DNA of 64,000 bases from a bacterium (GCA_023246225.1 JAHFIV010000001.1:46-64045); one strand, 5' to 3'. Shown: positions 339-19,046, numbered from the stretch's first letter. The notes: generated from the sequence alone by a model not told the origin. Numbers and translations are program-made.

Positions 339-470
339 AGAGACTAGCGAGGATCGCGGGGTTCTGGCCGTCGAACTTGTTGTCGAGCCAGTTGTAGTTC
401 CAGTTCCACCTGTCGCCGTTCCAGTACAGGTAGCGGACGTACAGGTTGCCGTTCGAATCGCGATCTCACG
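338..470 (-). pseudogene. truncated 3' fragment, paralog of gene 837..1421
   Basis: About 125 nt (approx. 340-465) aligns at roughly 85% identity with 840-965, the C-terminal coding end of the 837..1421 gene. There is no upstream coding continuation in the same frame. Confidence 0.4.
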
Positions 471-836
471 TGAAAACGCCGTCCAGTACACTGCCCATCG
501 ACCCTGCTCTCGCAGCTGCTCTCCAGGCTGTATCGTATTCGCGATCTATAATCGCCTAGCGTTTCACGCCAAGTTTCTTCATGTTAAGACTCATATCCGC
601 CGCGCCATTCTAAGCCTTGACCAAAAATGTTCCGAGCAAGAGTGAGTCGGGCTTGGCAGCAAAAAGCCGTGACCTTTTGCATATTCGCCTCACCTACAGG
701 CATGGTATAAAAATTGTTGTAAAAAAGAAACGGGGCCCCGCACAGAAATCGTGCGAGGCCCCAATGTACGGAGCGGAAGGACTAAGGGCCAAGGATCAAA
801 GGGCAAAGGACTACCCAAGGTTCCAAGGCCTAAAGC

Positions 837-1421: not shown

Positions 1422-1749
1422 GACAAGACTCCTTCTTTGATGCCGCTGGCTTGCTGATAACGGAGGGAATCCCCGTTTCCCAGATTGCTTTTTGTTTGAA
1501 AGCGGCGGCCTAGGGCCAAAAATAGACCTTATTTTGGCTGCAAAACGCTGATTTCAAACGAAAAAGCATGTAAAGGATCAACGAAATACTCTAGCAGAAA
1601 ATAAAGGTAATGTCAAGTTGGTGTAGTAGAATTGATCGGATTTTTTGATCGTCCAAAAAATATAACAAAATCCCAGCATGTGCTGGGACGTTGTTGGCTC
1701 CGGGTCGTGGAGGATGTTAGAACTGCAATCGAGACACAGACAACATACA

Positions 1750-2241
1750 TCAAGATTCCGATTCTCGTTTCAAAATAGTCACAATCTCTTTTTCTGTGTT
1801 TTTAAGAGAAACGTTTGCATCAACCATGATACTGACGATTCCCTGATCCAACACTTTTCTTTGCCATGTGACGTTGTCCATTATCCCGAGGCTTTCATTG
1901 TCTAATGTCGGATCGTTTTTCATTCGCTCTGCATTCCGTTTCAAGAGGATATCGAGTGGGCATTGCAATTGAATAATTTTGAAATCATCTTTCGTCATTG
2001 AGTGCAGCCTTTCATCAGGAAGATATGAAGTGAAGAAGATAACCTTTTCCATCCCGGCTACCGTATCATAAATTTTAGATGAGGATTGATGGCCATTATC
2101 CTCTGGCCACTCACCATCGTTGAGTTTTCTGATTTCCTCATCCATTTCTAAAACAGGAACAGCGAATTGTTGTGACTCTCGAATCAAATTAACCAGTGTT
2201 GTTTTACCAGAGCAAGGAGCTCCCAAGATCAAGAATTTCAT
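1750..2241 (-). CDS. P-loop NTPase (AAA_33 / nucleotide-kinase-like)
   Basis: Walker A GAPCSGKTT directly after the internal Met (MKFLILGAPCSGKTTLVNLI). About 163 aa. The start was trimmed to ATG at 2241. Confidence 0.6.
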   Translation of the reverse strand: MKFLILGAPCSGKTTLVNLIRESQQFAVPVLEMDEEIRKLNDGEWPEDNGHQSSSKIYDTVAGMEKVIFFTSYLPDERLHSMTKDDFKIIQLQCPLDILLKRNAERMKNDPTLDNESLGIMDNVTWQRKVLDQGIVSIMVDANVSLKNTEKEIVTILKRESES

Positions 2242-2329
2242 ACTCTGCAATGATACCAGTCCGAATCCCACTCGTGGTAGTGTCAGCATTCCCAAACTCA
2301 CGATGTCAGATTTGATTTATTGATTCTCC

Positions 2330-3466
2330 GGCGTTCATTCTTTAATTCTATCCTACAAACTATTCAAGCTGAAGTTCAATAAAGCACCAACCGATCGGGA
2401 TACATAATAGATAATTGTGCAATGATCTCCCCCCAGTCTTTAAGTGGCTTTCCTGTCCATTTTTTTGTGATATCCAACTGTGCCAGCCAAAGGTGGTGAC
2501 GCAAGGATTCGTCGCTTGTAAAAATATTCACCGTCTTAATTTCTCGACGGAACTGGCTGTGCAGACTTTCAATGGGATTGGTTGTGTAAATCAATCGTCT
2601 CACAGGCGCACTGTAAGCAAAGTATGGAGCGATTTCAGACCACTCTTTCTCCCAGCGCACCAAAAACGGCTTGAAGTCTGGCCATTTTTCCATCATGTCA
2701 GTAAGACCGACACGCCCCGCCTCCTCAGTTGGAGCGGTGTACACCTCTTTCAAATCGCCACAAAATTTCTCTTTTCGGTGACCCTTAACGAAATGGCCAG
2801 TGCTTCGAATCATGTGATTCACGCACTGCTGTATGGTTGCGTTCGGAAAAACAGCCTTTATGGCCTGTGAGAAACCTTTCAGACCATCGATGCAACAGAT
2901 CAAAATATCTTCGACTCCTCTATTTTTTAAATCAGTGAGAACCTGCATCCAAAACTTTGCGCCTTCAGTATCCGCGATCCATATACCCAAAAGTTCTTTT
3001 TCGCCATCCATGTTCACACCCAAGGCGTGATAGCTGCATTTGGCAACAGTTTTGCCACTCTCGCGCACGGAGCAACGCATGCCGTCGAGAAAGACGATCG
3101 GATAGACGCGTGCAAGTGGTCTTGTTACCCACTCATGCATTTGTGGAAGCGTTTCCTCTATTGCATGTCCAATTTGCGTGCGCGAAGCGTCAATCCCATC
3201 TGCTTTTAAAATCTGCTGGATTCCTCCAGTGGTCATGCCTTTGGTTTTCAACGCGAGTATCTTTGCCTCAATACCATTTTTAGATAACGCCAAGCGGCTC
3301 CCGACCTCTTTTTCAATCATGGACCCCAAATCGACACTAAAATGTTCTTTCATGAACACTGACATCTCTTCTGCCGTTTTGATACCCTGCATTCTTTCCT
3401 GTGTTGCGATCGATAAAGATTCCATAGATGTTTTTATGGTGATGTTAGTAGTCTCGTTGTCGAGTG
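2330..3466. mobile_element. IS256-family insertion sequence, approximate extent; terminal inverted repeats not resolved
   Basis: Single transposase ORF. The ends could not be defined by eye. The 41-nt gap to the adjacent ParB-like gene limits the right flank. Confidence 0.4.
2376..3425 (-). CDS. IS256-family (Mutator-type) transposase
   Basis: Transposase_mut hallmarks: DDE region and the characteristic C-terminal YTTNPIESLHSQFRR motif. 349 aa. Confidence 0.9.
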   Translation of the reverse strand: MESLSIATQERMQGIKTAEEMSVFMKEHFSVDLGSMIEKEVGSRLALSKNGIEAKILALKTKGMTTGGIQQILKADGIDASRTQIGHAIEETLPQMHEWVTRPLARVYPIVFLDGMRCSVRESGKTVAKCSYHALGVNMDGEKELLGIWIADTEGAKFWMQVLTDLKNRGVEDILICCIDGLKGFSQAIKAVFPNATIQQCVNHMIRSTGHFVKGHRKEKFCGDLKEVYTAPTEEAGRVGLTDMMEKWPDFKPFLVRWEKEWSEIAPYFAYSAPVRRLIYTTNPIESLHSQFRREIKTVNIFTSDESLRHHLWLAQLDITKKWTGKPLKDWGEIIAQLSIMYPDRLVLY

Positions 3467-4330
3467 TTAGGAAAAGCTGTGATCAAGAAGTTTTTTCAGC
3501 TCAGTGAGCAGTACTTTTTCATTGGAGGAGAAGTGCGTTTTCTCCTTACCTTTCAATTTTTGGATTACTTGCTCGATGCACAAAGAAAATCCTGACTGAA
3601 TGGTGTTTTGTTCAAGCGCCTTGACCGTCATGTCAGGGTCGGACAAAAACTCATAAATATGAGCGCTATTTGCGGTCGCTCGCAAAAAGATACGGCCCAC
3701 CGTCCTGAAATCCTTCGCGCTCCTGATTACGCTGTGACTCACCCGTTCGAAAAGCGTCTGAATGATTTGGTTGATCGTAAAATCTTTTATCGGACGCAGC
3801 TTTGGTTTGAGTTTAACGAATTCGACACGATAGCTCTCAGACAGACCGTACTGATCCATGAGCATTTTATAATCATCTTTTTCTTTTCCAAGATTCAATG
3901 AATTGCTGACAAGCGTAGTTGAGATGAAGAGAGAGTCGGCTAATTCCTTATTTGATGAGTAGCCGGCCGCCGCCTTGATCCTCAAAATCGCTTCCGCACG
4001 CTCCAATGGTTTCCAGGGGCGGCGGTTGTTTTGTATCTCGAAGCGCACGCGCTCAAGTTCTCCAGGCCTAAGAGCTGAGTAAATTCGACAGGGAATATTC
4101 TGCACGCCCAACTCTTTCGCGCAACGATAACGCCGATGGCCGTCGATGATGGTGTATTTCCCTTCGGAAGTCTTCGCGATAGCGAGAGGTTGTTGGATAC
4201 CCAATGTTCTCAAAGAAACGAGGAGACGGTTCTTCTCCCCATCCGTGTTGAAGCTTGTTCTTGGCTGATGCTCATCTTCTTGGATTGTGCTGAGCGGTAA
4301 CTCTCGAAATTCGATGTCGGTGTCTATCAT
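3467..4330 (-). CDS. ParB/Srx-like N-terminal domain protein (partition or nuclease-like)
   Basis: ParBc signature KYTIIDGHRRYRCAKELG. 287 aa. Lies only 41 nt from the IS256 transposase start. Confidence 0.7.
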   Translation of the reverse strand: MIDTDIEFRELPLSTIQEDEHQPRTSFNTDGEKNRLLVSLRTLGIQQPLAIAKTSEGKYTIIDGHRRYRCAKELGVQNIPCRIYSALRPGELERVRFEIQNNRRPWKPLERAEAILRIKAAAGYSSNKELADSLFISTTLVSNSLNLGKEKDDYKMLMDQYGLSESYRVEFVKLKPKLRPIKDFTINQIIQTLFERVSHSVIRSAKDFRTVGRIFLRATANSAHIYEFLSDPDMTVKALEQNTIQSGFSLCIEQVIQKLKGKEKTHFSSNEKVLLTELKKLLDHSFS

Positions 4331-4797
4331 AAAAAAATTTATTTATTGCGGGGCGTACCTTGGCACAAGCAAAAAAAATCGTCAAATATAAGACGGTTCT
4401 ATCAGTGCACGCGCCGCGATATGTTCACTGAACCTATTTCGCTCCTCCCCAGGCTCGCAACGTATATTAGGGAGCGCAATCGTCCCTAATTGGCGCAATT
4501 ATGAAAATTTGGTAGTAATTTTTTGCTAAAGATAAACAAGAAACGACGCTTCGCGGAAAAAATGGTGGCTTTACAATTGAGTCCACTTCCCTGCTCACTG
4601 CGACTTGAAGGGTCCTTGCACAAAAGATCTCTTGGCAGCTATCACCTCGACCGTGTTCTCTGCAAAAAGAAAACTCCCCACCGTGTTTTACGGTAGGGAG
4701 TTGAAGAAGTCGCGACGATCATGGTCTGCATTGAGAACGATGGAGATACGCGCGAGTGCACGTCGGAAGCACTTACTCGACCACGCGAGCCCCGCGC

Positions 4798-5238
4798 TTA
4801 CGGTCGTTTGGCGCGACGCTGGAGAGAACTGCCACCGATGAGGAGCCAAAGTTGGTTCCGCAAATCGGCCCACGTCGCCGGTCCCTCGCCAAAGACTTCT
4901 CGGATGGACCGGTTGCCCACGGGCTCGAAGTTGACGAGATCGACATCGTCAGCGTTGAAGGACCCGGTTTCGAACGCGGGTTCTTGATCGACGAGTTTTG
5001 GCATCGTCGACGCCGGACTGGGTGTGCCAGGTTGGTGCTCGTCGATTCGGACGCCGTTCCTTACAAGGAATTCCCACAGGCGGGAATCCACGAAATCGGC
5101 ATCGATGTCCTCGGCACCAAATACCTCTGCGAGCGTGCACGCGAGGACGGAGTCAAACGTCACGATGTACCGGGCTCCGAAACCCGTGAGGATGGGATTG
5201 CCCGCCGTGTGGTCCACGCTGATCGACTTCTCTGCCAT
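4798..5238 (-). CDS. hypothetical protein in a GC-rich patch
   Basis: Chosen over the overlapping plus-strand 224-aa ORF, which is Arg/Gly-rich. Same strand as the downstream genes. Local GC about 60% within the AT-rich block. Confidence 0.3.
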   Translation of the reverse strand: MAEKSISVDHTAGNPILTGFGARYIVTFDSVLACTLAEVFGAEDIDADFVDSRLWEFLVRNGVRIDEHQPGTPSPASTMPKLVDQEPAFETGSFNADDVDLVNFEPVGNRSIREVFGEGPATWADLRNQLWLLIGGSSLQRRAKRP

Positions 5239-5454
5239 TGGAGTCTTCCTTCTTGGGGATGGTCTGACATCTTCAACGCCTCCTCCCCCGGAAAGACCCC
5301 TCGTGTCGAGAGCGGAGGTTCCGGCGAGGGGGGCGGGGCGATGCTTATGTGGGAGGTACGGGGTTGCGGCGGGTGGACGAGATGGCGGCGAGCGTGTCGA
5401 CCGTTCCTTGTCGGTAGCCTTGCCGCCTGACTCTCCTACTTCGTGCAGGGAACC

Positions 5455-5940
5455 TTACAACAACGTAAGACTTGCCGCAAATTCCTCAAAACTTGGTTCT
5501 AGCGCCATGCTTTCTAGATGCATGGAGGATAGTTCGTACACGTTCCCATCCTTAAAAAAGATTAGAAAGTTTAAGAGTAAAAATATTCTTTCCTCACCTA
5601 GCTGAAGAGCATTTCTGATCACAAATTTGATCGCTGGAATGTCGAGGAAAGAAATAAATTCTTTACTGAGTAATTCGTTATCTCCTTTATTCATCGTTCC
5701 CACAACCATTTCTTCTAATCTCACCTGTGTATTGTAGGCAAGGTTATAGTCAGCTTCCTTTTGAGCATCGTACCGGTGACAATTTATGGAATAAAATACG
5801 AGACCGCCTGATGCTGTAGCTCTATAGGTAATACTGCTTCCCGGAGAATCGCTTTCTTCAATAAGCGTCTCTGTCCTTGTTGGTTCTTCTGGAAAATCCA
5901 CTTCAAAATCTGCCTCTTCCGAAACAATATGATATTTCAT
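5455..5940 (-). CDS. hypothetical protein, one copy of a novel paralogous domain (FEVDFP ... PxFEEFxxSF)
   Basis: Shares an N-terminal E(A/E)xFEVDFPEEP motif and a C-terminal (E/D)P(S/N)F(E/A)EF(A/K/T)(A/S)S(L/F) motif with 5937..6968 and 8527..9537. Overlaps the upstream gene by 4 nt. Confidence 0.6.
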   Translation of the reverse strand: MKYHIVSEEADFEVDFPEEPTRTETLIEESDSPGSSITYRATASGGLVFYSINCHRYDAQKEADYNLAYNTQVRLEEMVVGTMNKGDNELLSKEFISFLDIPAIKFVIRNALQLGEERIFLLLNFLIFFKDGNVYELSSMHLESMALEPSFEEFAASLTLL

Positions 5941-6968
5941 AAGCTTTTTTTTCTAAAAACAAAACTCGCCGTAAACTCCGCAAAGTTTGGCTCTGGAGTA
6001 TCTACGGGATACGTCACCGTCAATGTATAAGCATGGAGGTCCTTAAAAAAATTTGTGATTCTGCTGATATAAAAAAATTTCTCCGCGCCTACCGTCACAG
6101 AAAATTTAATTGCGAAGTTGACTGCTGGATAGCCAAGAAAGGAAATGTATTCTGCACTAAGTAGTTCAGAATCCTGGTACTGACTCAACATCCCCGTTAC
6201 CAACCCCACTAACCTTGCCTCCATGTTGTATGCAAGATCATATGCTACGGCTTTTTCATCGTCAAAGCTGTTGTACACGACGGAAAAAGTCGCTTGGTCG
6301 CGAATTGCTTCATAAAAAATTACGACACCTGAGGCAGTGATCCCTTCCTCGTGCTTTTCTGTCTTCTTTGGTTCTTCTGGGAAATCCACTTCAAATCCAG
6401 CCTCTTCACACACGAAGTGAAACTTCGAAAGAATTTTTTCTCTAAACTTGAAACTTGATTTAAACTCCTCAAAAGTCGGCTTCGCAGGAGCACGGAGTGG
6501 GTAAGTAATAGAGATCAGGTATGAATCCCGACCGTTAAAGAAAAAAGTGATTTTATATATCGTTGTATCAGATCTTAGTTCAGCATCGAGTGCCTGATGA
6601 CCAAGAAAGGAAGTGAAGCCTGAGTTCACCAATCGAGAACCCGCGCAGTCTCTCACTAGTGCTTTCAATGTATCTTCTAGAACTGCCTTCATGTTATACC
6701 GTGGATCACGCTCGTCGACATGCGCGCTCTCAAAACTGTAGTGCATTATAGAATAAAAAGAATCACCGAGCCCCGCTGTATACGAGATAGTCTTTGACCA
6801 ACCGCTTTCTGGATCTTCTTGTTTCTCTTCCTCCTTCCTAACTACGGAAGGAAAGTCCACTTCAAACCAAGAATCTTCGGCGATGTAATGGTGGCAACGT
6901 TCTTCTTCCTCGAGAACTTCCGGTGCGGGAGAGTTTTTACTGTTAAAAAATGATAAAAACTTTTTCAT
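5937..6968 (-). CDS. hypothetical protein with three tandem copies of the same novel domain
   Basis: Three repeats of roughly 110 aa, each starting xFEVDFPxxP and ending TPExNFxEFxxSFxF. The start was trimmed to ATG at 6968 (MKKFLSFF). The upstream extension would overlap the lipoprotein gene. Confidence 0.6.
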   Translation of the reverse strand: MKKFLSFFNSKNSPAPEVLEEEERCHHYIAEDSWFEVDFPSVVRKEEEKQEDPESGWSKTISYTAGLGDSFYSIMHYSFESAHVDERDPRYNMKAVLEDTLKALVRDCAGSRLVNSGFTSFLGHQALDAELRSDTTIYKITFFFNGRDSYLISITYPLRAPAKPTFEEFKSSFKFREKILSKFHFVCEEAGFEVDFPEEPKKTEKHEEGITASGVVIFYEAIRDQATFSVVYNSFDDEKAVAYDLAYNMEARLVGLVTGMLSQYQDSELLSAEYISFLGYPAVNFAIKFSVTVGAEKFFYISRITNFFKDLHAYTLTVTYPVDTPEPNFAEFTASFVFRKKSL

Positions 6969-7125
6969 AAGTCGTGATCTGCGTATTTTATTTTTATCTC
7001 GGTAATACGTGTATTCATGAAATTCGCGTTTATTTATGTTCTCCAAAAACTCGCGTGCATAGATGACTTTGGTTGATACTTCCACCAGGCATCTTGTTTT
7101 ATATACAGCACCCGTAGTGGCCACT

Positions 7126-7815
7126 CTAACCGTCACATGCGCATCCTGGAGGTTGATGACAAGTGTAGCTTCGACTGATACAGGAATTACCGCATGCTTT
7201 TCCTTTCGAGCATGTTTTGCAACAATAATTCTTTGGTGCTGGTCTAGGTGATGTTGAGGTTGTGGTAGGAACCGTGATTTTTTCCGCCACGTCCGGTAAT
7301 ACATTTATTCCGGGCAATTCCTGATTGAGTCGATAATTTCTTGAGGGAAACAGCAATGATGAAAGCCCATCATCACCTAGACCACCGAACCGATCAACTA
7401 CTCCTATGCATGGCCGCGAGTTAGTGATGTCCTCGTATAGATCTTCGGAAATCCGATATTCTCCAGTTTCCGAAACCGGGAAGTGTGTGTAACGTGTCTT
7501 TTCATAAGTGTAGAGATTCCCTTTCAAAGTCGAATAGCGCCTAAAAATAAGCGTGTTGCAATAATCAAACAGTCCGTTCGCACCCTGTGGATTCAACTGT
7601 TGAGTGTACCCTGAGCCATTCTCAACCTCTTTCAGTTGGCAATCTTTAAAAATAGATGGTAGCTCAGCCCATTCAAGCGGCAGTACACATTGCCGAACTG
7701 CAACTACTGGTGTCGTTGACGGTTGTAGTGAAGCGACTTCTTGACATCCGGCACCGATTAATATCAATGAAGTAACGATTAGGACAAACGTAGAATTAAT
7801 TTTTACATGCAGCAT
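7126..7815 (-). CDS. lipoprotein with Cys-rich C-terminal tail
   Basis: Signal peptide plus lipobox LIGAGC. The C-terminus NYCCKTCSKGKACGNSCISRSYTCHQPPGCACDG has 10 Cys in 34 aa. Confidence 0.6.
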   Translation of the reverse strand: MLHVKINSTFVLIVTSLILIGAGCQEVASLQPSTTPVVAVRQCVLPLEWAELPSIFKDCQLKEVENGSGYTQQLNPQGANGLFDYCNTLIFRRYSTLKGNLYTYEKTRYTHFPVSETGEYRISEDLYEDITNSRPCIGVVDRFGGLGDDGLSSLLFPSRNYRLNQELPGINVLPDVAEKITVPTTTSTSPRPAPKNYCCKTCSKGKACGNSCISRSYTCHQPPGCACDG

Positions 7816-7915
7816 AGTCAGCTTCTAGCCAATAAAATTTGCGCGTTCGTTAACGAGGAAACGCGAGTGACCACTGTTCCCTTACCATTTTACACCCGTG
7901 TCCCGTGTGGATGGG

Positions 7916-8530
7916 TTAATGTTGCCCGCTGATAACCAACAAATTTTCACTAAAAATAAATAACTCATGCTTCGCACTCTCAATTATTTCGTCTGCACGG
8001 CTTGAATCTTTTTTATTCCTCATATCAAGCATCTTCTCGTGCAACGCAACCATCTTTGGCAACAGATCATCATAATACTGTTTCTGATATTTTTCACCAA
8101 AATATTCCTTGAGAAATAACGGGTTTAATAAGTTTGTTTCATTCCACTGAGAAACAGATGTCATGTACTCCCTCCAAGTTTGATCTAGAGTAGACCTGGT
8201 CTCTCCAGCAACAAAATTTAGATAATATTTTTCTGAAAAATACACTCTACGTTGACCGACTACCGTGAAAGCATTAATAAAATTATACCTATTTTTGGTC
8301 AAGGTACTCAGATTCGTATAACGTTGCTGAATTTCTTGTTGTTTACTTTCAACGTAATAATTACCGATAAAAAGAGTAATCGAAAGCAAAATTAAACTCG
8401 AAAAAAAATTGTATAAATTTTCTTTGGTTGGCAAATTCTTACTATTTCGATTAATCCACTCAGAAAGATTTAATGATTTTCTAATTCGACCATTAATCAT
8501 GAGTGTCCTAATAAAAATTAGGAATCTCAC
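7916..8530 (-). CDS. hypothetical membrane-anchored protein
   Basis: An N-terminal hydrophobic segment. Overlaps the upstream gene by 4 nt (coupled). Confidence 0.45.
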   Translation of the reverse strand: MRFLIFIRTLMINGRIRKSLNLSEWINRNSKNLPTKENLYNFFSSLILLSITLFIGNYYVESKQQEIQQRYTNLSTLTKNRYNFINAFTVVGQRRVYFSEKYYLNFVAGETRSTLDQTWREYMTSVSQWNETNLLNPLFLKEYFGEKYQKQYYDDLLPKMVALHEKMLDMRNKKDSSRADEIIESAKHELFIFSENLLVISGQH

Positions 8531-9537
8531 CTTAACTTGAAACTCGACTTGAATCCCTCGAGATCTGGCTTCGAAGAAGCTCCGTTCGAATATTCAACTG
8601 CCACGAAATATGCATCTCTACCATAAAAGAAAAAAGTTCCTTCAACAGTTTTTTGATTAGAATCAACTGCAAAATCAATGGCTTGATGACCTAAGAAAAA
8701 AGAAAAATTTGAGCTTATTAACTTTGAACCCTTAATCCCATTGACCATTCCATTGACCGAACCTTCAAGTCCCGATTTTACATTATAAGTAGGCGACTTC
8801 TCGTCTATGCCTGGATCATCAAAACTGTAATGCATCACATAATAAATTGAATCGCCTTTATCCGCTTCATAAGTTACATAATTAGTTCCCAACTCCCCCG
8901 GCATCCCCTCACGATGTTCTTGTCTTGTTGGAGCAGTTGGAAAGTCTGCCTCAAAGCCTGAATCTATAGAAGTGTAATGATATCCAAGTTCTTTTTGCGA
9001 TAAATCATTGACCTTATCTGAAGATATTTTTTGGTAATCATGGACCCCAACCATCATCCAGACGAAAACCGCTCCGAGCAAAATAACAAAAATTGCTGTT
9101 ACGATCGCGAAAGTTTTCCAATACTTTTTGTCAGCAACCTTCCTTATTTTCTTTAATTCTTCGTCTGTATGATGGACCGGAAGTTTTTCTGGTGGCGCAA
9201 TTTTTCCAAGAATAATCTTGAGTGGTCTTGTGAGCGCTGGATAAAACCAAAACCAACTAAATGGAGCAAAAAAGACCGACCAAAAAGCTTGCGCCTTGGT
9301 TACGAGTCGGGTCAACTTGATCACCCGCATGCACTCAGTAACAAAAAATACCAATAAACCGAGATACACAAGCGACAGAAGCCCATATATCCCATCGTTG
9401 ATTCGGCCGATCAAACTTTTAATAATTATCAACGAAACAAAAACCGATACAAATAAAAATTGTATATCAATAAGAAGTTTTTGTGCCTCTTTAGTACTCT
9501 TAATATCGGTTGCCGCGAGGTATTCTTCTTTGGTCAT
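8527..9537 (-). CDS. polytopic membrane protein with a C-terminal copy of the novel FEADFP domain
   Basis: N-terminal half has at least 4 TM segments. C-terminal GFEADFPTAP...DLEGFKSSFKLR is homologous to the repeats in 5937..6968. Confidence 0.6.
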   Translation of the reverse strand: MTKEEYLAATDIKSTKEAQKLLIDIQFLFVSVFVSLIIIKSLIGRINDGIYGLLSLVYLGLLVFFVTECMRVIKLTRLVTKAQAFWSVFFAPFSWFWFYPALTRPLKIILGKIAPPEKLPVHHTDEELKKIRKVADKKYWKTFAIVTAIFVILLGAVFVWMMVGVHDYQKISSDKVNDLSQKELGYHYTSIDSGFEADFPTAPTRQEHREGMPGELGTNYVTYEADKGDSIYYVMHYSFDDPGIDEKSPTYNVKSGLEGSVNGMVNGIKGSKLISSNFSFFLGHQAIDFAVDSNQKTVEGTFFFYGRDAYFVAVEYSNGASSKPDLEGFKSSFKLR

Positions 9538-9563
9538 AATTATTTTTAATTTCTACTATGCCG

Positions 9564-11675
9564 CTAGTCGAGAATTCCTATCGGAATCTTTTCCAAATCA
9601 CTAGTTGTAATTCCCAGCCCAAGGGTGCGCATGAGATTGTATGCGTCTCCTGGCTTACCCATGAAATACCGCTTGCCGTTTGCTGGGTTCACATACCACG
9701 CGTCACCTGCATGTTCGACTTGTAATAATATTTTTCCACTCATTCTTTCAATTAATTTTTTGTCGCCAACTTTAAGATCATCATTAGCTGGTATTTTTGT
9801 AAGATCCTTGTCAGAAATACCTAGCGCGAAAGTTCTCATTAAACCAAACGCTGCCGACCCGTCTTTCATGTAATACCTTTTTCCATCATCCGGATTTACG
9901 TACCAAGCTTCACCATGAGATTCGACATCTAATAAGATTTTACCCCTAACATTCGCAGCTAGGCCTGGATCATAAATGGAAAAACCATAAAATGGCATTT
10001 GATTGTGGGATACGTACCATTGGAGCCCATACCAAACGTAATTATTCGAACCGAGAGGTTCAATGGCGCTCAATTCCTGTCTACTAATTTGGACAGTCAA
10101 GGCGTCGATGGCATGAAAAAGATTCGCGTCTGCATTTATCCAATTATCACCACCTTCTTGAATCGAACTAAAATTATACTCTTGCCCATTTCGAGGGTCG
10201 ATGTAGCAACCAAGGGCACAGCCCACATCTGTGGATTGACCCGCCGCCCCATCTTTAAAAACCGTTAAAAATTGACCCCACACGGTCCGAGGTTTTTTTA
10301 TGTAGTCCGAGTAAAAAATGCCAGTATTCGCGTTGAATCCATTCCATTCGCCATTAAAAAGACCTGACATGCGTTCAGCAAAATCACGCAACGACATCTT
10401 TTGGTCATAGACTAAATAACGAACCCCATCTTTCGGACTAAGCCACCAAATCGCGCCGCCCTGTTTAAGAAAAAGGCCGGAATATTTTTGCTTTATTTGT
10501 TGATTCGTTATTCTGTAGATGGATTTTTCTTTTTGATAAATTTGATTTAATCGTCCCAACTGCATAGGGGCAGGAGGTGCGACGATCGCATCGGAAATAT
10601 TCCCGACTGTATCCTGTAATTTAATAATGAAGTATTGCTTCGTCTGGTCAGTTAGTAAGAATTGTTCAGGAATAACCACTTTCGTAAGCCCCTCCTGAAC
10701 GACCAATTTTTTTCCGTCAACCGCCGGATCAGCTATTGGACTTGACCCAAAATAATAAAATATTCTCTTGACCGCACTATCCTCAACAATTTTAGTTAAC
10801 GGTATAGTATATCGAATACGACTTTGTTTCGAAGCGTCATCATTAATAACCTGATAATCGATGTCGAACCATTTTAAAAATGGTGGACTTGTGTCCGACT
10901 GTAATGCTCTCTGAGGTTTTTCAACTACTACAGGTTGCTGCGGAATTGTCTGTGAATAATTTTGTCCTAGTATTCCCAATAACCATTGCTTGATGCTGTT
11001 TACAGACAAAAGGTATCCAAGCGAATTTAATGTGCCAGCAATCACCATCGAAGGGATGCCCACGAATTCGCCTTTTGAGTTGTACGCGGCACCGCCGGAA
11101 TTTCCATGTTCAATCGCGGCAGTTGTTTTTAAATAGTTTTTTGTCCCATCGCTACTACTGCCAAATCCACTAAAATCTCCGGAAGAATAAGTGATCGTAT
11201 TTCCGCCGATCCCCGGGAAGCCAACGACTTCTATTTTTTCACCAAATTGTAGGGAGGCGGAATTGCTGTTCCAAATATTTATGCTAGGAAAAACTCTATT
11301 ATCCGTATTTTTGATATAAAGAATCGCGGCATCAAGCCCTTTTTCGTTGGTGAAATATTTTGTCTCGGCAACATTTCGACTTACTTCAGTACCAAAATTT
11401 GGCTCCTCTTCTGGACTAGAAGTAAATCCAATAAAACAAGCCCGAAGAGTTCCGCCATGCTCATCGGTTACGACGTGCTTATTTGTCAAAATGACTCCCT
11501 TGGAGTCAATAATTGTTCCTGTTCCGCTAAACCAATTGCCGTAGTTGTCGGGACAAACGATCTTAACAGCGGCACTAAGCTGACTCTTGGTAACAGCCCA
11601 TGCCGGAAAAACAAAAAATAAAAGTCCCAGCAGACTAAGTAAAGATGTGCTGATTAATAAAGATGGTTTTCTCAT
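9564..11675 (-). CDS. secreted trypsin-like (S1) serine protease with two C-terminal tandem repeats
   Basis: Signal peptide (MRKPSLLISTSLLSLLGLLFFVFPAWA). His region TNKHVV and Ser region GNSGGAAYN. Two roughly 51-aa repeats (KILLxVExxGxAWYVNPxxGKRYxM...LMRTxxLGI) at the C-terminus. Confidence 0.75.
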   Translation of the reverse strand: MRKPSLLISTSLLSLLGLLFFVFPAWAVTKSQLSAAVKIVCPDNYGNWFSGTGTIIDSKGVILTNKHVVTDEHGGTLRACFIGFTSSPEEEPNFGTEVSRNVAETKYFTNEKGLDAAILYIKNTDNRVFPSINIWNSNSASLQFGEKIEVVGFPGIGGNTITYSSGDFSGFGSSSDGTKNYLKTTAAIEHGNSGGAAYNSKGEFVGIPSMVIAGTLNSLGYLLSVNSIKQWLLGILGQNYSQTIPQQPVVVEKPQRALQSDTSPPFLKWFDIDYQVINDDASKQSRIRYTIPLTKIVEDSAVKRIFYYFGSSPIADPAVDGKKLVVQEGLTKVVIPEQFLLTDQTKQYFIIKLQDTVGNISDAIVAPPAPMQLGRLNQIYQKEKSIYRITNQQIKQKYSGLFLKQGGAIWWLSPKDGVRYLVYDQKMSLRDFAERMSGLFNGEWNGFNANTGIFYSDYIKKPRTVWGQFLTVFKDGAAGQSTDVGCALGCYIDPRNGQEYNFSSIQEGGDNWINADANLFHAIDALTVQISRQELSAIEPLGSNNYVWYGLQWYVSHNQMPFYGFSIYDPGLAANVRGKILLDVESHGEAWYVNPDDGKRYYMKDGSAAFGLMRTFALGISDKDLTKIPANDDLKVGDKKLIERMSGKILLQVEHAGDAWYVNPANGKRYFMGKPGDAYNLMRTLGLGITTSDLEKIPIGILD

Positions 11676-12000
11676 AAAAAATCCGTGTTGTTGTTTGGAA
11701 AAAGTAAAAACGGGCCACACATCTCACGTCCGTCTTTTGATAAAAATAAAAAGCGACACCCGGTGGTGTCTAGACCCAAGCCAAGCACGGATAGTGCGAG
11801 GTTTGTTTACCGGATGCCGCTTATTGCGCGCTATCCGGAAATAGGCAAAAATTGCCCTGTTTAGCTTGGTTCTAGACGAAGGAAGTATACCGTTAAGTGT
11901 TTAAAAAGGAAAAAACGCCATTTTTTACGAGTACGCGCCACGATGACTTGAAACGTTTTATTTTTTAGGCTAAATTTCTCTATGCAAGAAATGCTCAACT

Positions 12001-12882
12001 ATGACTAACGTTGATGAAGTTCGGACATCAAAAAGGATCCTCAAAATCCTTGCCGAATACGCCGATGGCTCGTCCAGGGTAAAAAATCTGACCGAAGAAC
12101 CTTTCAAATTGACCGCGATACCACCAGACTCCAAGACAACAATTCAAACACACTATTTTTTACCATCCAATGAATTTGATGGTCTAGAATTTTCCGTTAT
12201 TCAACAACGGCTAGGCCTCTCATTTAATGCCCTAAAGGAGGAACTTCTAAATTTTCTCAAGCTTGGTTTCGTACACATTTTTAGAAAAAGTTCGCGTAAT
12301 GATTTTTTAAACAGAATTTTTTCTCAAACGACCACACCGTCTTCTCGGACACTTACTTTAACAAATTGGAATTCGCCACAAAATTATCTCGTTTCAATAA
12401 CCGACGAGGGACGAAAAAATCTCAAAACTATACTTCGTCAACCGAATAAGCAAATACAGACCGAGAAGATAAAAAATGAGGTAACAAAAAAATATGACGT
12501 TGAAGAAGTCTATCGTATTAAGTTTAAGGATTTTAAAAATGTGGAAAAACAATCTTTTTTCCAATACGGTGAAAAAATTGCTCCTCTTCCTAGATACACA
12601 ATCCGAGCCAGAAGCCGTAGCATTCAACGATTGGTTGCGAAATTTCTGTATACGGGAACAAACTTAAAAAAGATTTCCTGTGAATGGGACGAGATCGAAG
12701 AATTTCTAACCGAAAACGGTATAGGACCGGTGGGTGGCGCAAAATCTGAAGGGTGGGGAGAGCACAAAAAAATACAAAAAATGATTCGAGATGCAATCAG
12801 GGCAATAAACAAAAAAACTAAAGAATGTTTTGGATTTAAAATCCTAAAACACTCTCGTGGTTTGATTATCAAATCAAAATAA
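12001..12882 (+). CDS. hypothetical protein (island cargo)
   Basis: A 293-aa ORF that is AT-rich and Lys-rich. Followed by a hairpin with a T-run. Confidence 0.5.
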   Translation: MTNVDEVRTSKRILKILAEYADGSSRVKNLTEEPFKLTAIPPDSKTTIQTHYFLPSNEFDGLEFSVIQQRLGLSFNALKEELLNFLKLGFVHIFRKSSRNDFLNRIFSQTTTPSSRTLTLTNWNSPQNYLVSITDEGRKNLKTILRQPNKQIQTEKIKNEVTKKYDVEEVYRIKFKDFKNVEKQSFFQYGEKIAPLPRYTIRARSRSIQRLVAKFLYTGTNLKKISCEWDEIEEFLTENGIGPVGGAKSEGWGEHKKIQKMIRDAIRAINKKTKECFGFKILKHSRGLIIKSK

Positions 12883-12943
12883 TTATTTCCTAAAAGTGAG
12901 TCACATTTCAAAAAGGTGAGTCACGCTCAGTCACATCCCCAAA

Positions 12944-12976
12944 GAGTAGTCTGCATTACGCAGGCTACTTTTTTAT
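12944..12976 (+). terminator. intrinsic terminator-like hairpin with T-run
   Basis: GAGTAGTCTGCATTACGCAGGCTACT followed by TTTTTTA. Preceded by direct repeats GTGAGTCAC x2. Confidence 0.45.
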
Positions 12977-13139
12977 TTACCCCGCCGAATCTAAAAAGCT
13001 CATCTAACAATATGTCCCCACAAAAATCTTCCCCAAACGCAACAGGACCGCCCGTTAAGGCGATCCTGTACGAAACGCAAGACTCTCTAAAAGCCACGTT
13101 TATAATTTTATTTTAACCTTATTACTTAACTAAAGCAAT

Positions 13140-13514
13140 ATGATCGTAAGCGCCCCAACATACAGCATTTGTCCTACCGGTCGATACAACCTATGTATTA
13201 TTGGCAACCCTGAAGAAATAAAAAATCCATTCGATCCAAACAAAAAACTTATTGAGATTCAATTCGAGGCTAAGTCTGTCGATGGGCAAAAATTCACCGT
13301 GTCTCTCCGGTGCAGTCCAGTGCTGCATCCGAAAGGGCATCTATTGCCTTTGGTGGAGGCTATTCTTGGTCGTCAGCTCACCATTCAAGAGCAGCTTCGT
13401 TTCGATCTCGACTCCATCAATGGCTGTGTTGTGAGTGGAGAGGTCACCCACCAGGCCTCGACTCGAGGAAACGTGTATCCCAAAGTAGGTAATTTCAAAA
13501 AAGCTGCTAGCTAA
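13140..13514 (+). CDS. hypothetical protein
   Basis: A 124-aa ORF immediately upstream of the primase gene. Confidence 0.4.
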   Translation: MIVSAPTYSICPTGRYNLCIIGNPEEIKNPFDPNKKLIEIQFEAKSVDGQKFTVSLRCSPVLHPKGHLLPLVEAILGRQLTIQEQLRFDLDSINGCVVSGEVTHQASTRGNVYPKVGNFKKAAS

Positions 13515-13522
13515 TCGTTCAT

Positions 13523-15820
13523 ATGACGGACAGTACAATACTAGCCGCAGCTCTCGAATACCGAAAAATGGGCTGGAGTGTAATCCCTGTTCGACTTTCT
13601 TTTGAGGAAGGAAGAACAGACAAGGCGCAGAAAAAACCTCTTATTGATTGGAAAGACCACCAAACACGCATCGCGAGCGAAGATGAGTTAAAAACCTGGT
13701 GGAAAAAATGGCCCGAAGCACAGATTGGTGTGGTGACAGGAAAAATTTCTGGACTCGTTGTTCTTGACGTTGACCCAGGTGCAACCATTGAAAAGATCAA
13801 TGAATTACGGATCCCTCCCACTCCGACCGTGAAAACACCGAGAGGCTTTCACTATTACCTGAAATACCCTGGAAGCCCGATGAAAAATGCGACTGATCTT
13901 TTTGGCAGAAATTCTCATATTGACCTTCGTGCTGATGGTGGGTTCGCAGTCATTCCGCCTTCTGTATATCCAGATGGAAGAACGTATGAGTGGGCTATTC
14001 ATCCTGACGCGGAGGATCTTGCCGCGGTGCCTGCCATCTTGCTTCTGAGTCAGGCGAGCGATAAAAATGGAACATTAAAATCCATCGCGAACGGTGTCAC
14101 TGAGGGTTCGCGTAATGATTCGGCAGCGAAATTCATTGGAGCGGTGATTTCACGCGCTCCTCAAGCTGAGTGGAAAAATGTTGGCTGGCAGGAGGCTGTT
14201 CGGTGGAATATGACTAATTCTCCACCACTCCCTAAAGAGGAGTTAGAACAGGTTTTTAGCAGTATCACCGCGCGAGAGGCCGCAAGGATTAAGTTTCCTG
14301 TAGAGGAAACTGAAGAAAATGTTCCATCGAAAGCAAGAAATTCTGAATCAGGAGCGGACAATCTCCTTGGAATCGCCAAAAGGAAAGGTGTTGACCTTTT
14401 CCATAATGAAACAGGAGAACCGTACGCTCGTATCCCTATCCACGACCATTTCGAGATCTGGCCTTGTAAGCACAGTCAGATGCAACGGTGGCTGTCATAT
14501 CTGTTTTATGAAAACACTGGATCCGCACCAAAAACAGATGTATTAACGCAAACCGTCAACATGCTGGAATCCATGGCCTCTTATGATGGAGAAAGGCGCA
14601 AGCTTCATAACCGTGTGGCTTGGTATGAAGGATCCTTTTGGTATGACCTTACGGATGCGGACTGGCGCGTGGTGAGAATAGATGGAAATGGCTGGGAGAT
14701 CGTTGCGGCACCTCCTATATTGTTTCAGCGATACGCGCATCAGCAACCACAGGTCGAGCCACAATCAGGCATGGACACAAAGAAAATTCTGGAGTTCGTA
14801 AACATTACGAATGAAGCTGATCAAATTCTGTTTCTGGTTTTCTTGATCTCCTGTTTCATTTCAGGATTTCCACATCCCATCCTCGTTCCCAATGGACAGC
14901 GCGGGTCGGCAAAGAGCACACTATTCCGACTCATCAGAAAAATTGTTGATCCGTCTATTCCTGAACTTCTGTCGCTTCCAAAAAGACCTGAGGAGCTCGT
15001 ACAACTTCTCTCACATCACTGGTTAGCGCCCTTCGATAATGTGACTGCGATCAATGATGCAACTTCCGACGCTCTTTGTCGCGCGATCACCGGTGATGGG
15101 TTCAGTAAGCGTCGCTTATATTCTGACGATGAGGACGTGATCTATGAATTCCTTCGCTGCCTCGGTCTCAATGCGATCAACAACATGGTCACAAAGCCAG
15201 ACCTTCTCGAGCGCTCGCTTCTCATTAATCTTGAAAGAATTCCAAATGAAAACCGCAGGGAAGAAAAGGTTTTTTGGGATGACTTTGCAAAAGCGAGACC
15301 GATGATCTTGGGTGGTATCTTCGACCTCCTAAGCCGCACCATACCCTTACATGAGTCCTTGGTGCTCAACGAGCTTCCCAGGATGGCTGACTTCACCCGC
15401 TGGGGCTGTGCTATCAGTGAGGCTTTGGGGTACGGCAAGGAGAAATTTCTTGATGCCTACAAACTGAACATCGCTGCACAAACGGAAGAAGCGATCAGGG
15501 AAAACCCAGTGGCAGACGCGCTCGTTCTCTTCATGGAAACACAGAAAGTTGTATGGAACGGTACCGCAAGTGTTTTGTTGGAAAAATTAAAAGAGGTTGC
15601 CGCAGGACAAGGGACAGACATGGATGACCGAGGTTGGCCGAAGGGAGCGAATGTTCTCTCCAAAAAACTGAAAGAACTAAAAACAACGCTCGTGGAAAAG
15701 GGCATACATATGTTCCAAGCAGGAAGAGAAATCACTCTCTATAAAAGTGATCTAAAAATGGACACGGGCGCGAGCGAGAAATCAGAGCCGGAATTCCCCA
15801 CCGAGACCTTTTTCAGGTGA
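13523..15820 (+). CDS. bifunctional DNA primase/polymerase (Prim-Pol N-domain) fused to a phage/plasmid P4-type primase C-terminal P-loop domain
   Basis: N-terminal Prim-Pol motifs: GWSVIPV, LVVLDVDP and FAVIPPSVYPDGRTYEW. Central D5_N-like region. Walker-A-like GQRGSAKST. Confidence 0.8.
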   Translation: MTDSTILAAALEYRKMGWSVIPVRLSFEEGRTDKAQKKPLIDWKDHQTRIASEDELKTWWKKWPEAQIGVVTGKISGLVVLDVDPGATIEKINELRIPPTPTVKTPRGFHYYLKYPGSPMKNATDLFGRNSHIDLRADGGFAVIPPSVYPDGRTYEWAIHPDAEDLAAVPAILLLSQASDKNGTLKSIANGVTEGSRNDSAAKFIGAVISRAPQAEWKNVGWQEAVRWNMTNSPPLPKEELEQVFSSITAREAARIKFPVEETEENVPSKARNSESGADNLLGIAKRKGVDLFHNETGEPYARIPIHDHFEIWPCKHSQMQRWLSYLFYENTGSAPKTDVLTQTVNMLESMASYDGERRKLHNRVAWYEGSFWYDLTDADWRVVRIDGNGWEIVAAPPILFQRYAHQQPQVEPQSGMDTKKILEFVNITNEADQILFLVFLISCFISGFPHPILVPNGQRGSAKSTLFRLIRKIVDPSIPELLSLPKRPEELVQLLSHHWLAPFDNVTAINDATSDALCRAITGDGFSKRRLYSDDEDVIYEFLRCLGLNAINNMVTKPDLLERSLLINLERIPNENRREEKVFWDDFAKARPMILGGIFDLLSRTIPLHESLVLNELPRMADFTRWGCAISEALGYGKEKFLDAYKLNIAAQTEEAIRENPVADALVLFMETQKVVWNGTASVLLEKLKEVAAGQGTDMDDRGWPKGANVLSKKLKELKTTLVEKGIHMFQAGREITLYKSDLKMDTGASEKSEPEFPTETFFR

Positions 15821-16256
15821 AAAAATCTAAAAACGATAGAACGATAGAAACGATCTTTTTATAGCCTTTGAAGATTAAAAGAGGGTTAAGAAGAGGGTAG
15901 TAGAGAGGTATAGAGATAGAAAAATCATCGTTTTGATCGTCCTATCGTCATGGAAAGGTTCTTCCGACTGAAAACTTGATTCAAATCAACCTCCTAAAGT
16001 TGAGTAAGAACTCATTCCAAGGCGAACCTCAGCCAAATAACAAAGATTACAAGATTCATATCTTAGTTTAATAGGTTTAAAACCTATGATTAGGACAACG
16101 CACCGTGCGCGACTAGACAAAAGACTAATTAATTGATTTTTAATCAATTTTAAACCATCAAAATAATCTGTTAAAGTAAGCAACGTTGACCAGAAGCGGT
16201 CAGATGACACCACTTGTTATCACCGCTCTCCAGCCGTTGCACTTTAACAACTTAAT

Positions 16257-16499
16257 ATGACCACCGATTCCACAAAAAATAACGATACGAGTATCCATGA
16301 GTATCTCAATGTGAAAGAGTTTGCTGCCGCTTTAAGACTTTCTGTAACCAGTTGTTACCGTCTTGTGCAACAAAGGCTCATTCCTTTCCATCGCTTACGA
16401 GGAGGACTCAGATTTCATCAAAAGGATGTCGATGCTTACTTCAAAGCATGCCGCGTGGAGTCGGTGACGAGGAAAGATTATGAGTGCAAGAAGGAATAA
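16257..16499 (+). CDS. excisionase/AlpA-like HTH DNA-binding protein
   Basis: An 80-aa ORF with an HTH (LNVKEFAAALRLSVTSCYRLVQQRLIPFHRL). Overlaps the integrase start. Confidence 0.6.
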   Translation: MTTDSTKNNDTSIHEYLNVKEFAAALRLSVTSCYRLVQQRLIPFHRLRGGLRFHQKDVDAYFKACRVESVTRKDYECKKE

Positions 16500-17595
16500 G
16501 AATAGAAATTCTTGGTCGGTCGATTTCCAAATCGATGGAATTCGTTACCGTCAACGAAGCCCTGAGAATACCGGGGCCGGTGCTAAGGCATACGAAGCCG
16601 TATTGCGACAAAGATTGGCGCGGGGTGAATCGATTCATGCGAAACCAGCACCAGTTGCTCAGGAGGTGAAGACCTTCGAAGTCTTTTGTAAGGAGTGGTT
16701 CAATACGTACGTGCTCACGAACAGCTCACCAAAAGAACGAGTGCGCAAAGAGTCTGCCCTGCGGGTGCACATCATTCCATTCTTTGGGGCTCGAAAACTC
16801 ACAATGATCACTAATCGCGCCATAGAAGAGTTCAAGGCTTCCCTCCAAAAGCAGGGTCTCGCACCGAACAGTGTAAATAACACCCTAAATGTTCTTACGC
16901 GATGTCTGCGGTCAGCAGTTGAATGGGGTGAGCTTGGTGTGCTGCCAAACGTCAAAAGAATGAAGGTCCCTCCTACTAAATTTGATTTTCTCTCCCCCGA
17001 AGAGACCGATCGACTCTTTGCTGCAACAAAAAAAGATATGCCTTGGCATCTCATGCTCATGATCGCCGCAAGAACAGGTATGAGATTCGGAGAAATTATT
17101 GTACTGGAGTGGGGAGATGTTGATTTTGAGCGGCGAACAATCACCATTCAACGCTCTCTTAGTAATCGAGTAATCACTGCACCAAAGAACAACAAAAAAA
17201 GATTTGTACCTATCGCTCCAGACCTCTTTCCCGTCTTGTGGGAGTATCGGCAACAGAGTGGGTTGGTACTCCCTGGACCACAGGGCGACTACTTAACTCA
17301 TTCAATGGGGAGAACGGCGCTCGAGAAGTATCGACGGAATGCGGCGATAAGAAAGATCGGGTGGCACACGCTTCGCCATTCCTTCGCGTCACAATTAGTC
17401 TCCAGAGGAGTTTCATTGCGGATTGTCCAGGAACTTCTTGGACATTCAGATATGCGGGTTACACTTCGTTATGCGCACCTCGCACCCTCTAGCCTGAGAC
17501 AAGCGATCAATCTCCTGACGTTGCCCGAGGTAGAAGAAGAAATGTCTACCGGCTGTCAACGCAACATCCTTGAAGACAAAAAATCATTACAATAG
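16480..17595 (+). CDS. tyrosine-type site-specific integrase
   Basis: C-terminal catalytic region HTLRHSFASQLVSRGVSLRIVQELLGHSDMRVTLRYAHL, covering the R...HxxR...Y motif arrangement. N-terminal SAM-like domain. Confidence 0.9.
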   Translation: MSARRNKNRNSWSVDFQIDGIRYRQRSPENTGAGAKAYEAVLRQRLARGESIHAKPAPVAQEVKTFEVFCKEWFNTYVLTNSSPKERVRKESALRVHIIPFFGARKLTMITNRAIEEFKASLQKQGLAPNSVNNTLNVLTRCLRSAVEWGELGVLPNVKRMKVPPTKFDFLSPEETDRLFAATKKDMPWHLMLMIAARTGMRFGEIIVLEWGDVDFERRTITIQRSLSNRVITAPKNNKKRFVPIAPDLFPVLWEYRQQSGLVLPGPQGDYLTHSMGRTALEKYRRNAAIRKIGWHTLRHSFASQLVSRGVSLRIVQELLGHSDMRVTLRYAHLAPSSLRQAINLLTLPEVEEEMSTGCQRNILEDKKSLQ

Positions 17596-17660
17596 CACCT
17601 CCTCTCACCGCCAGTTTCTTGCAAAAATAAGGCTAAAAATGTAGTATGGCGATACAACGT

Positions 17661-17748
17661 GGAGGGGTGGCCGAGAGGTTTAAGGCAACAGTCTTGAAAA
17701 CTGTCGTTCTGAAAGGAACCGTGAGTTCGAATCTCACCCCCTCCGCCA
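17661..17748 (+). tRNA. tRNA-Ser(TGA): tRNA-Ser (anticodon TGA)
   Basis: Manually folded cloverleaf: acceptor stem GGAGGGG/CCCCTCC, anticodon loop CTTGAAA, long variable arm, T-loop GTTCGAATC, discriminator G, encoded CCA. 88 nt. Confidence 0.85.
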
Positions 17749-17775
17749 CGACAATTTCTTATCGGTGTCATCCTT

Positions 17776-18823: not shown

Positions 18824-18829
18824 GTCGTA

Positions 18830-19036: not shown

Positions 19037-19046
19037 AGTGGTTTGC

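Follow-up and report, generated by a model that had tools for sequence, protein, structure and literature searches.

An integrative element of about 19 kb at the tRNA-Ser(TGA) gene of a Patescibacteria bacterium that appears to supply the 5′ half of its target tRNA

Replacement of the 5′ half of a tRNA gene by an integrating element is rare but already documented, in pelagiphages and in archaeal pTN3-like plasmids. HTVC019P-type pelagiphages, which infect SAR11, supply the 5′ end of tRNA-Cys, tRNA-Leu and tRNA-Arg, as was shown by sequencing and polymerase chain reaction (10.1101/410191). In the pTN3-like plasmids of Thermococcales the chromosomal attachment site (attB) is a tRNA gene's 5′ half and the tRNA is expressed from the element, an arrangement said to be “seldomly encountered in bacteria” (PMC8371274). 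In the passage of that paper which cites Williams (2002), rebuilt bacterial tRNA genes are stated to retain their original promoter with very few exceptions. The filters of Islander accept a 5′ fragment upstream of the tDNA (PMC4383910). Here we describe an element of about 19.0 kb joined to a tRNA-Ser(TGA) gene in a 64,000-nt stretch of bacterial DNA (GCA_023246225.1 JAHFIV010000001.1:46-64045, hereafter the window, with positions counted from its first letter). We consider it very probable that this is an integrative element bearing a gene for its own replication, inserted by a heterobivalent tyrosine integrase into the tRNA-Ser(TGA) gene of a bacterium of the candidate phyla radiation (CPR). 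The novelty lies in the host lineage, in the type of element and in an integrase clade nested among canonical relatives; a full-text literature search turned up no paper with tRNA-integrated elements of CPR as its main subject.

The window element resembles the HTVC019P-type phages in having a tyrosine integrase gene directly upstream of an attachment site in which the 5′ part of a tRNA gene is included, and this element-derived end would complete the split host tRNA. Base changes in the phage-derived 5′ end also have a counterpart, in an A/T difference at tRNA position 16 of the window element. The phages differ in being T7-like, with virion genes and alphaproteobacterial hosts, whereas the window element has no recognisable virion genes but a PrimPol-SF3 replicase (SF3, superfamily 3 helicase), a diversity-generating retroelement (DGR) and a CPR host. 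Its integrase clade is moreover nested among relatives of the 3′ type, and integrases from marine viral contigs are only 25–28% identical to it. The likeness to the pTN3-like plasmids lies in the rebuilt tRNA gene, which in the plasmids is expressed from an element-borne promoter and in the window element is preceded by an element-borne promoter-like motif. The plasmids differ in being archaeal, in their “suicidal” SSV-type integrases, which split their own gene, and in the promoter of the tRNA, which is said to be that of the integrase gene; the window integrase gene is an intact open reading frame (ORF) of 371 codons, and the spacer between it and the tRNA holds a separate promoter-like motif. 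With the Staphylococcus aureus pathogenicity islands (SaPI) and other phage-inducible chromosomal islands (PICI), and with P4 satellites, the window element shares an integrase, an excisionase-like helix-turn-helix (HTH) protein and a primase-helicase, the last with the helicase fold of SaPI5 Rep, but its cargo is different and packaging or capsid-redirecting genes were not found.

An earlier, sequence-only reading of the window had proposed an integrative element at 12001–17748, joined to tRNA-Ser(TGA), with an integrase gene (int) on the 5′ side of the intact tRNA gene and preceded by an xis-like HTH protein and a 765-aa Prim-Pol primase. The gene coordinates were verified (Table 1): the stop codon of int lies 65 nt before the +1 of the tRNA on the same strand, the excisionase-like ORF, which overlaps the start of int, matches both HTH_17 and TIGR01764, and the large protein before it matches Prim-Pol and PriCT_1. 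Two other readings of the tRNA, namely that it lies on the minus strand or is a pseudogene, were ruled out by ARAGORN and Rfam. In an alignment of 33 sequences of the integrase family, R202, K236, H296, R299, H322 and Y331 are invariant, and judged by this alignment the catalytic set of the window integrase is complete.

The far boundary had escaped the sequence-only reading, and it is indeed absent from the window. No k-mer of at least 14 nt from 17560–17800 recurs there, the k-mer and repeat searches gave only 11–13-mers at chance level, and no further tRNA fragment was found in window positions 1–17600 or in the 1.3 kb beyond. Exact protein look-ups with the leftmost window genes retrieved an overlapping metagenome contig (L164/L168; ENA ERZ27280176, 16.8 kb), of which the reverse complement at 9165–15128 equals window 1–5964 at 99.98% identity and which reaches 9,164 bp further left. 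Searching with the halves of the tRNA, as had been suggested, gave a positive result here, beyond the window, and resolves the puzzle of the missing repeat. A direct repeat of 47 nt from the 5′ half stands at 7811–7857 of the reverse-complemented contig (attL), that is at window coordinate −1353 to −1307, 1,353 nt left of the window start, and it is separated by 19,011 bp from the copy at the tRNA (attR). The copies are identical at 46/47 positions (blastn E 1.5e-16), and int, xis and the replicase gene lie between them. Their one mismatch is at 17676, tRNA position 16, which is A in attR (4 assemblies) and T in attL (3 assemblies). The displaced tRNA 5′ fragment lies upstream of the intact tDNA in direct orientation and passes the Islander configuration filter, and the gene for a tyrosine integrase lies inside the candidate island, as Islander requires. 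The proposed element joined to tRNA-Ser(TGA) is accordingly bracketed by a 5′-half repeat, but the extent first given to it was too small: the 5.7 kb at 12001–17748 are only the right-hand third of about 19 kb, with the left end at about −1353. Because of this att geometry we suggest that the intact tRNA-Ser(TGA) is a hybrid, with a 5′ part from the element and a 3′ part from the chromosome.

The element has a GC content of 0.447 against 0.512 and 0.497 in its flanks, which bears out the earlier impression that the left block is AT-rich relative to the backbone. To the left of attL follow tRNA-Ser(gct) and genes for adh_short, DUF1653, a pilin, an amidase, ZnuABC and RecG, with a GC content of 0.50. 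GroEL encoded in the window is 84–90% identical to GroEL of metagenome-assembled genomes (MAGs) assigned to the Patescibacteria group, Candidatus Uhrbacteria and Parcubacteria, and by this comparison the host is an uncultured, ultra-small CPR/Patescibacteria bacterium. The window takes up almost the whole of its source contig of 64,327 bp. Complete E. coli genomes gave nothing but the tRNA match to window 11500–19500, and plasmid and phage collections gave no match beyond the tRNA to window 1–20000.

Table 1. Features of the element and its target gene, in window coordinates; negative coordinates lie to the left of the window start.
Feature	Position	Strand	Remarks
In-window portion of the ~19.0-kb element	1..17699		Extends ~1.35 kb past the window start to attL
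DGR reverse transcriptase	-1069..-56 (off-window; L168 6021-7034)	-	RVT_1; phrog_1423 4e-102; divergent from Avd
DGR accessory protein Avd	99..338	+	NF033474 DivGenRetAVD 4e-9; bAvd 4e-5; between template repeat and reverse transcriptase
DGR template repeat (TR)	343..464	-	122-nt pair with the variable repeat (VR)
DGR target gene, 194 aa	837..1421	-	VR 840-961 at the 3′ end of the gene
Small P-loop kinase-like protein (AAA_18/AAA_33)	1750..2301	-	Profile match
IS256-family transposase	2376..3425	-	Transposase_mut 3e-67, profile positions 101-376/379; NF033543
ParB/Spo0J-like protein (ParB_N)	3467..4330	-	Profile match
Four copies of a ~155-aa domain	5455..9537	-	ORFs 5455-5940, 5937-7304 (two copies) and 8527-9537; no family match
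Further ORFs in the 5455..9537 block	7126-7815, 7916-8530	-	No family match
718-aa protein, N-terminal trypsin-like (HtrA-like) protease domain	9564..11720	-	Trypsin_2 3.6e-19
ORFs of 293 aa and 124 aa	12001..13514	+	Start of rightward operon; no family match
Replicase, 765 aa: Prim-Pol, PriCT_1 and predicted D5-like SF3 helicase	13523..15820	+	Prim-Pol 5e-32 (Pfam); fold match for the helicase
Excisionase-like (recombination directionality factor) HTH_17 protein, 80 aa	16257..16499	+	HTH_17 3.6e-11; TIGR01764 “excise” 8.7e-9; phrog_66 excisionase
Tyrosine integrase, 371 aa	16480..17595	+	Phage_integrase 5e-31 and Phage_int_SAM_3 (Pfam); PHROG 1
Candidate arm-type sites, int-proximal	17543..17562	+	Tandem TGTCTACCGGC TGTCAACGC, 11-nt period; inside the int 3′ end
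Element-borne promoter-like motif	17619..17647	+	TTGCAA-17 nt-TAGTAT; ends 13 nt before tRNA +1
attR copy of the 47-nt repeat	17658..17704	+	CGT and tRNA positions 1-44; final base is the anticodon stem end
tRNA-Ser(TGA)	17661..17748	+	Intact; ARAGORN and Rfam tRNA 60.3 bits; sole tRNA called in the window
Anticodon loop CTTGAAA, proposed 7-bp overlap	17693..17699	+	Between inverted arms ACAGT (17688-17692) and ACTGT (17700-17704)

We compared 80 metagenome loci with relatives of the integrase (31–45% identity). In all 25 loci that have a tRNA within 400 nt downstream, the nearest tRNA is convergent with int, which is the usual 3′-side layout. For the closest homologue (P0002 on contig L256, 60% identical), a tRNA-like 5′ end in the same direction (GGAGGGTTGCGCCGAATGG...) begins 30 nt beyond the stop codon, and the contig then ends. 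On contig L171, from a related species, an integrase of 374 aa that is 48% identical to that of the window lies 69 nt upstream of a tRNA-Ser(tga) and co-directional with it. A perfect 41-nt repeat of tRNA positions 1–41, ending 2 nt into the anticodon stem, is found 7,115 bp away beside tRNA-Ser(gct). The left flank in this species (RecG to adh_short and tRNA-Ser(gct)) is syntenic with that of the window population at 70–76% nucleotide identity, with adh_short being 68% identical, and the 7.1-kb element has only xis, int and att in common with the window element. It had been held that lack of an att repeat together with conserved synteny across relatives would indicate an ancient, fixed region; an att repeat is present, and the related species carries a different element at the site.

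The integrases of the window, L256 and L171 form a clade (97/100 neighbor-joining bootstraps) nested among convergent relatives. These canonical relatives resemble the window element in having integrases 40–50% identical to its own and a tRNA about 4–65 nt from the int stop codon, and an HTH_17 gene adjoins int in L257, L256, L259 and L171, where gene calls exist. They differ in having int and tRNA convergent and in supplying the 3′ part from the element, of which the window clade is the mirror image. In L096 (tRNA-Glu), which shares the anticodon-loop sublocation with the window element, the displaced fragment starts at position 30 and reaches the 3′ end, and in L257 (tRNA-Gly; carrying the integrase P0018, Patescibacteria MAG) it comprises positions 47–75. 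The sequence-only reading had remarked on the unusual position of the integrase 5′ of the tRNA. L171 and L256 share this polarity; the 5′-side layout is real and specific to the clade, and no quirk of annotation.

Several other loci were seen in this comparison. The integrase P0004 has no tRNA near it; two contigs from different runs that carry it, L260 and L261, both end 103 nt after the stop codon, which could mark a further assembly fork at an att site, and L259 continues without a tRNA. Seven distant integrases on viral contigs in IMG/VR (26–34% identity; L198, L222, L229, L227, L242, L246 and L249) have a co-directional tRNA 11–41 nt downstream, all of them Ser-gct, Ser-tga or Leu-taa, so that tRNAs with a long variable arm are found in 7/7 of these contigs. 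On L257 (11418–11573), a 29-nt copy of tRNA-Pro positions 1–29 lies about 50 nt upstream of an intact tRNA-Pro, which adjoins the tRNA-Gly that hosts the canonical element of the window integrase family.

The att repeat ends at linear tRNA position 44 in the window and 41 in L171, and the anticodon loop comprises positions 33–39. The att identity stops at the anticodon stem-loop with its dyad symmetry, which is the anticodon-loop (symmetric) sublocation of Williams (2002), as PMC8371274 sums it up. We find it most likely that strand exchange takes place in the 7-nt anticodon loop, because of where the repeats end, because of the symmetric arm sites and because of contigs that start at 17677. 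These contigs (L166 and L167, from two further samples) both begin at exactly this position, the base after the att mismatch. They come from a de Bruijn assembly with k=141, and a fork at 17677 is what would be expected, as indirect evidence, if attR (A16) coexists with an attB-like T16 allele that is the same to the right of 17676 and differs to the left; it would place the crossover 3′ of 17676 (tRNA position 16). The junction predicted for attB has the native promoter and T16 and then ...ACTGT|CGTTCTGAAAGG, and that predicted for the circular form (attP) has the int 3′ end and A16 and then ...ACTGT|GACGAGACTC.

Candidate arm-type sites are present on both sides of the proposed crossover. 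The int-proximal arm (TGTCTACCGGCTGTCAACGC at 17543–17562) and the distal arm (TGTCAACGGGCTGTCAACGC at about −1179 to −1160, same strand) have a 12-mer in common, and each lies about 145 nt from the center of the anticodon loop. L171 has a tandem motif that is different from that of the window (TTTTGGGCATCTAATGGGCATCAA), with a 24-mer in both arms at similar distances, a length reached in 0/2000 shuffles. All three int–tRNA spacers (window, L171 and L256) contain TTGC[ACG]A-17-TA[AG]T[ACG]T, each time 13 nt before the tRNA +1, and the stranded native 5′ half at attL retains a promoter-like motif of its own, TTGATT-18-TACACT. At the level of sequence, then, the copy next to int is the intact one and carries A16 and the conserved promoter-like motif, as a 5′-half-replacing element should. 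A working attP is supported by these arm sites and the promoter-like motif, by the end of the repeat exactly at the anticodon stem, and by the different 7.1-kb element that the L171 species has at this site in the same polarity. The features fit a lambda-like heterobivalent integrase, and we suggest that in the window element the motif serves as a promoter and the tandem repeats as integrase-binding arms.

We propose that in attP the promoter-like motif and tRNA positions 1–44 lie just downstream of int, with the arms of the anticodon stem serving as core sites and the anticodon loop as overlap region, and that the tandem arm-type sites, some 145 nt to each side, are bound by the N-terminal domain of the integrase. 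Integration would leave the native promoter and native 5′ half at the left end as attL, and would join the 3′ half that stays in the chromosome to the 5′ half and promoter of the element, giving the intact tRNA at attR. Int and Xis could then excise the element, and the PrimPol-PriCT-SF3 helicase protein would replicate the circle so formed.

The helicase part of this protein, which the sequence-only reading had called a P-loop primase, is without sequence-profile support, as residues 261–765 gave nothing against Pfam, NCBIfam and PDB sequences. It is backed by structure prediction. An AlphaFold2 model of these residues (predicted local distance difference test score 88.6, predicted template-modeling score 0.86; 35 homologues) matches the helicase parts of African swine fever virus PrimPol, SaPI5, NrS-1 and poxvirus D5/E5 (Foldseek E 3e-10 to 1e-7), with a template-modeling score of about 0.5–0.6 for the SaPI5 primase-helicase 7OLA, and a Walker A variant, GxQGSAK[ST]T, is conserved in the replicase family. 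On the basis of this model, the 765-aa protein is a predicted PrimPol-PriCT-SF3 primase-helicase. The family is large: at E<=0.001, residues 261–765 (window 14303–15820) have 19,063 cluster representatives, and the stricter limit of E<=1e-30 still gives 9,626. An alignment of 35 members of the C-terminal domain gave weak P-loop matches only against PDB sequences.

Several observations weigh against an element that integrates and excises in the manner proposed. Contigs with the empty site (attB) or the circular junction (attP) were not recovered, and 4/4 contigs that carry the left-flank adh_short, found by exact-protein look-up, are occupied. The sequence of attL comes from a different assembly of this population and not from the window contig. 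The fork at 17677 is indirect and could also be explained by another occupant of the site and not by an empty site. The length of the 12-mer shared by the window arms was reached in 11/2000 shuffles (p ~0.006), which is of moderate significance only. The promoter-like motif fits 8/12 positions of the sigma-70 consensus, CPR promoters being poorly known, and it is too weak to have been flagged in the int–tRNA spacer by a generic promoter scan; read-through from int is an alternative source of tRNA transcription. Finally, with a truncated IS256 transposase and much unannotated cargo, the element may be decaying. The occupied left-flank contigs, the lack of attB and attP contigs, the truncated transposase and the large, partly repetitive cargo could together mean that the element entered by the route we propose but is now a fixed, decaying island without excision. 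We regard this as unlikely, since int, xis and the replicase gene are full-length with the catalytic residues of the integrase intact, there is almost no deviation in the arm sites and att repeats (att 46/47), contigs fork at the att mismatch in two samples, and a different element occupies the same site in the related species. It seems rather improbable, too, that the element is a composite in which a DGR/ParB/IS256 block accreted beside a smaller int-xis-replicase element. Such an origin would account for the change of gene orientation at about 11.8–12.0 kb, the range of GC content inside the block (0.35–0.52), the IS remnant at 2376–3425 and the small size of the L171 element, which has no replicase or DGR among its called genes; yet there is one integrase and one pair of tRNA fragments only, and, whatever its past, the whole 19 kb is now bounded by attL and attR and would be excised together.

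The sequence-only reading had also likened the element to a PICI or satellite. The likeness holds for the replicon: an integrase, an AlpA/Xis-type regulator and a primase-helicase form the module known from PICI and P4, and the SaPI5 primase-helicase 7OLA has a matching helicase fold. It does not extend to packaging. No family of the kind terS, cpm/ppi or sid/psu/delta was detected with Pfam and PHROGs, nor any for a terminase small subunit, capsid-size redirection or head completion, and no virion, terminase, portal, tail or lysis family was found (Pfam scans, and PHROGs on ten ORFs, with several ORFs unannotated). A length of 19 kb with a DGR and a protease is above the typical size of a PICI, and a helper phage is not known. 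There is no support for PICI or satellite status, and mobilization by a helper phage appears quite unlikely to us. A relaxase, oriT, coupling protein or type IV secretion genes, as expected of integrative conjugative or mobilizable elements, were absent among the element ORFs. We give very little credence to the idea that the integrase belongs to an island on the 3′ side of the tRNA, at 17749–22240, or that the tRNA is cargo with att elsewhere. It is true that 17749–22240 is absent from the L171 species and that RibD_C homologues, one of which lies in this segment, are in other CPR MAGs often the direct 3′ neighbors of tRNA genes; but no repeat of the tRNA 3′ part exists anywhere in the window, no integrase lies near the RibD_C homologues elsewhere, L171 and L256 keep the same polarity, and the 5′-half repeat brackets int exactly. 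An element to the right of the tRNA was rejected on these grounds. We therefore favor the element that replaces the 5′ half of tRNA-Ser(TGA), which may still be mobile at present.

The segment directly 3′ of the tRNA (17749–22240: RibD_C, HTH_3, DUF2975 and an ABC transporter) is not found in the L171 species, and therefore the tRNA is flanked by variable DNA on both sides. A copper-ATPase/DsbD block (22612–27270) is also absent from that species, of which the right flank matches window 22240–22612, 27270–27519 and 28477–29529. The right-hand block yielded neither an integrase nor an att repeat. RibD_C homologues in unrelated CPR MAGs (L006, L048, L022, L030, L033 and L027) are often directly 3′ of a tRNA for Gln or Trp, with no integrase near, and RibD_C relatives in 185k species genomes stand in unrelated contexts, with no syntenic empty site and no integrase near. 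The RibD_C gene seems to travel between lineages and is probably horizontally transferred. Also outside the element, the window has a gene for a TraG-like P-loop ATPase (29817–31712) and an ORF of 3,280 aa (38100–47942).

The left part of the element carries its cargo. In the 5455–9537 block the copies of the ~155-aa domain are 26–42% identical (blastp among the ORFs) and correspond to the DNA repeats D2–D4, and to judge from the profile positions that it covers, the IS256 transposase looks N-terminally truncated. PADLOC on the cargo found no complete defense system and gave generic reverse transcriptase and protease matches only, among them weak matches of the 718-aa protein to the protease part of RT-Protease. 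Next to attL lies a set of genes and repeats that is characteristic of a DGR: a reverse transcriptase, a 122-nt TR/VR pair in which all mismatches are at TR adenines (TR-A to VR-G or VR-C), a VR at the 3′ end of the target gene, and Avd, which scores below the curated cut-off and of which the in-window ORF is partial, the frame being open upstream past the window edge. From these features we conclude that a complete DGR is located inside the integrative element. In sample ERZ27280021, contig L169 ends at about window 913 and a 52-kb contig with L255 begins at about window 756, so that the assembly breaks from both sides inside or beside the VR; this would fit heterogeneity of the VR in the population, and hence an active DGR. 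DGRs are said to account for about 80% of the reverse transcriptases of CPR (PMC8632793), and a DGR on a tRNA-integrated element is one way in which DGRs could spread among CPR bacteria.

In conclusion, the locus provides a precisely delimited integrative element from CPR, for which att sites, candidate arm sites and a promoter-like motif are now described along with the replicase and the cargo. Island finders that are restricted to the 3′ side of tRNA genes would miss elements of the 5′-half-replacing kind. The nested position of the integrase clade makes it a small, tractable case for the switching of att polarity. We tentatively raise the possibility, which for now we regard as doubtful, that this CPR-associated clade flipped its att polarity, from supply of the 3′ half to supply of the 5′ half together with a dedicated promoter, with the anticodon-loop crossover probably kept. 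If this is true, transcription of tRNA-Ser(UGA), possibly a single-copy gene in a reduced genome, passes to the control of the elements, and the host supply of tRNA-Ser(UGA) would depend on the element promoter for as long as the element is integrated. The clade would then be a natural before-and-after pair for the evolution of attP polarity and of target restoration.

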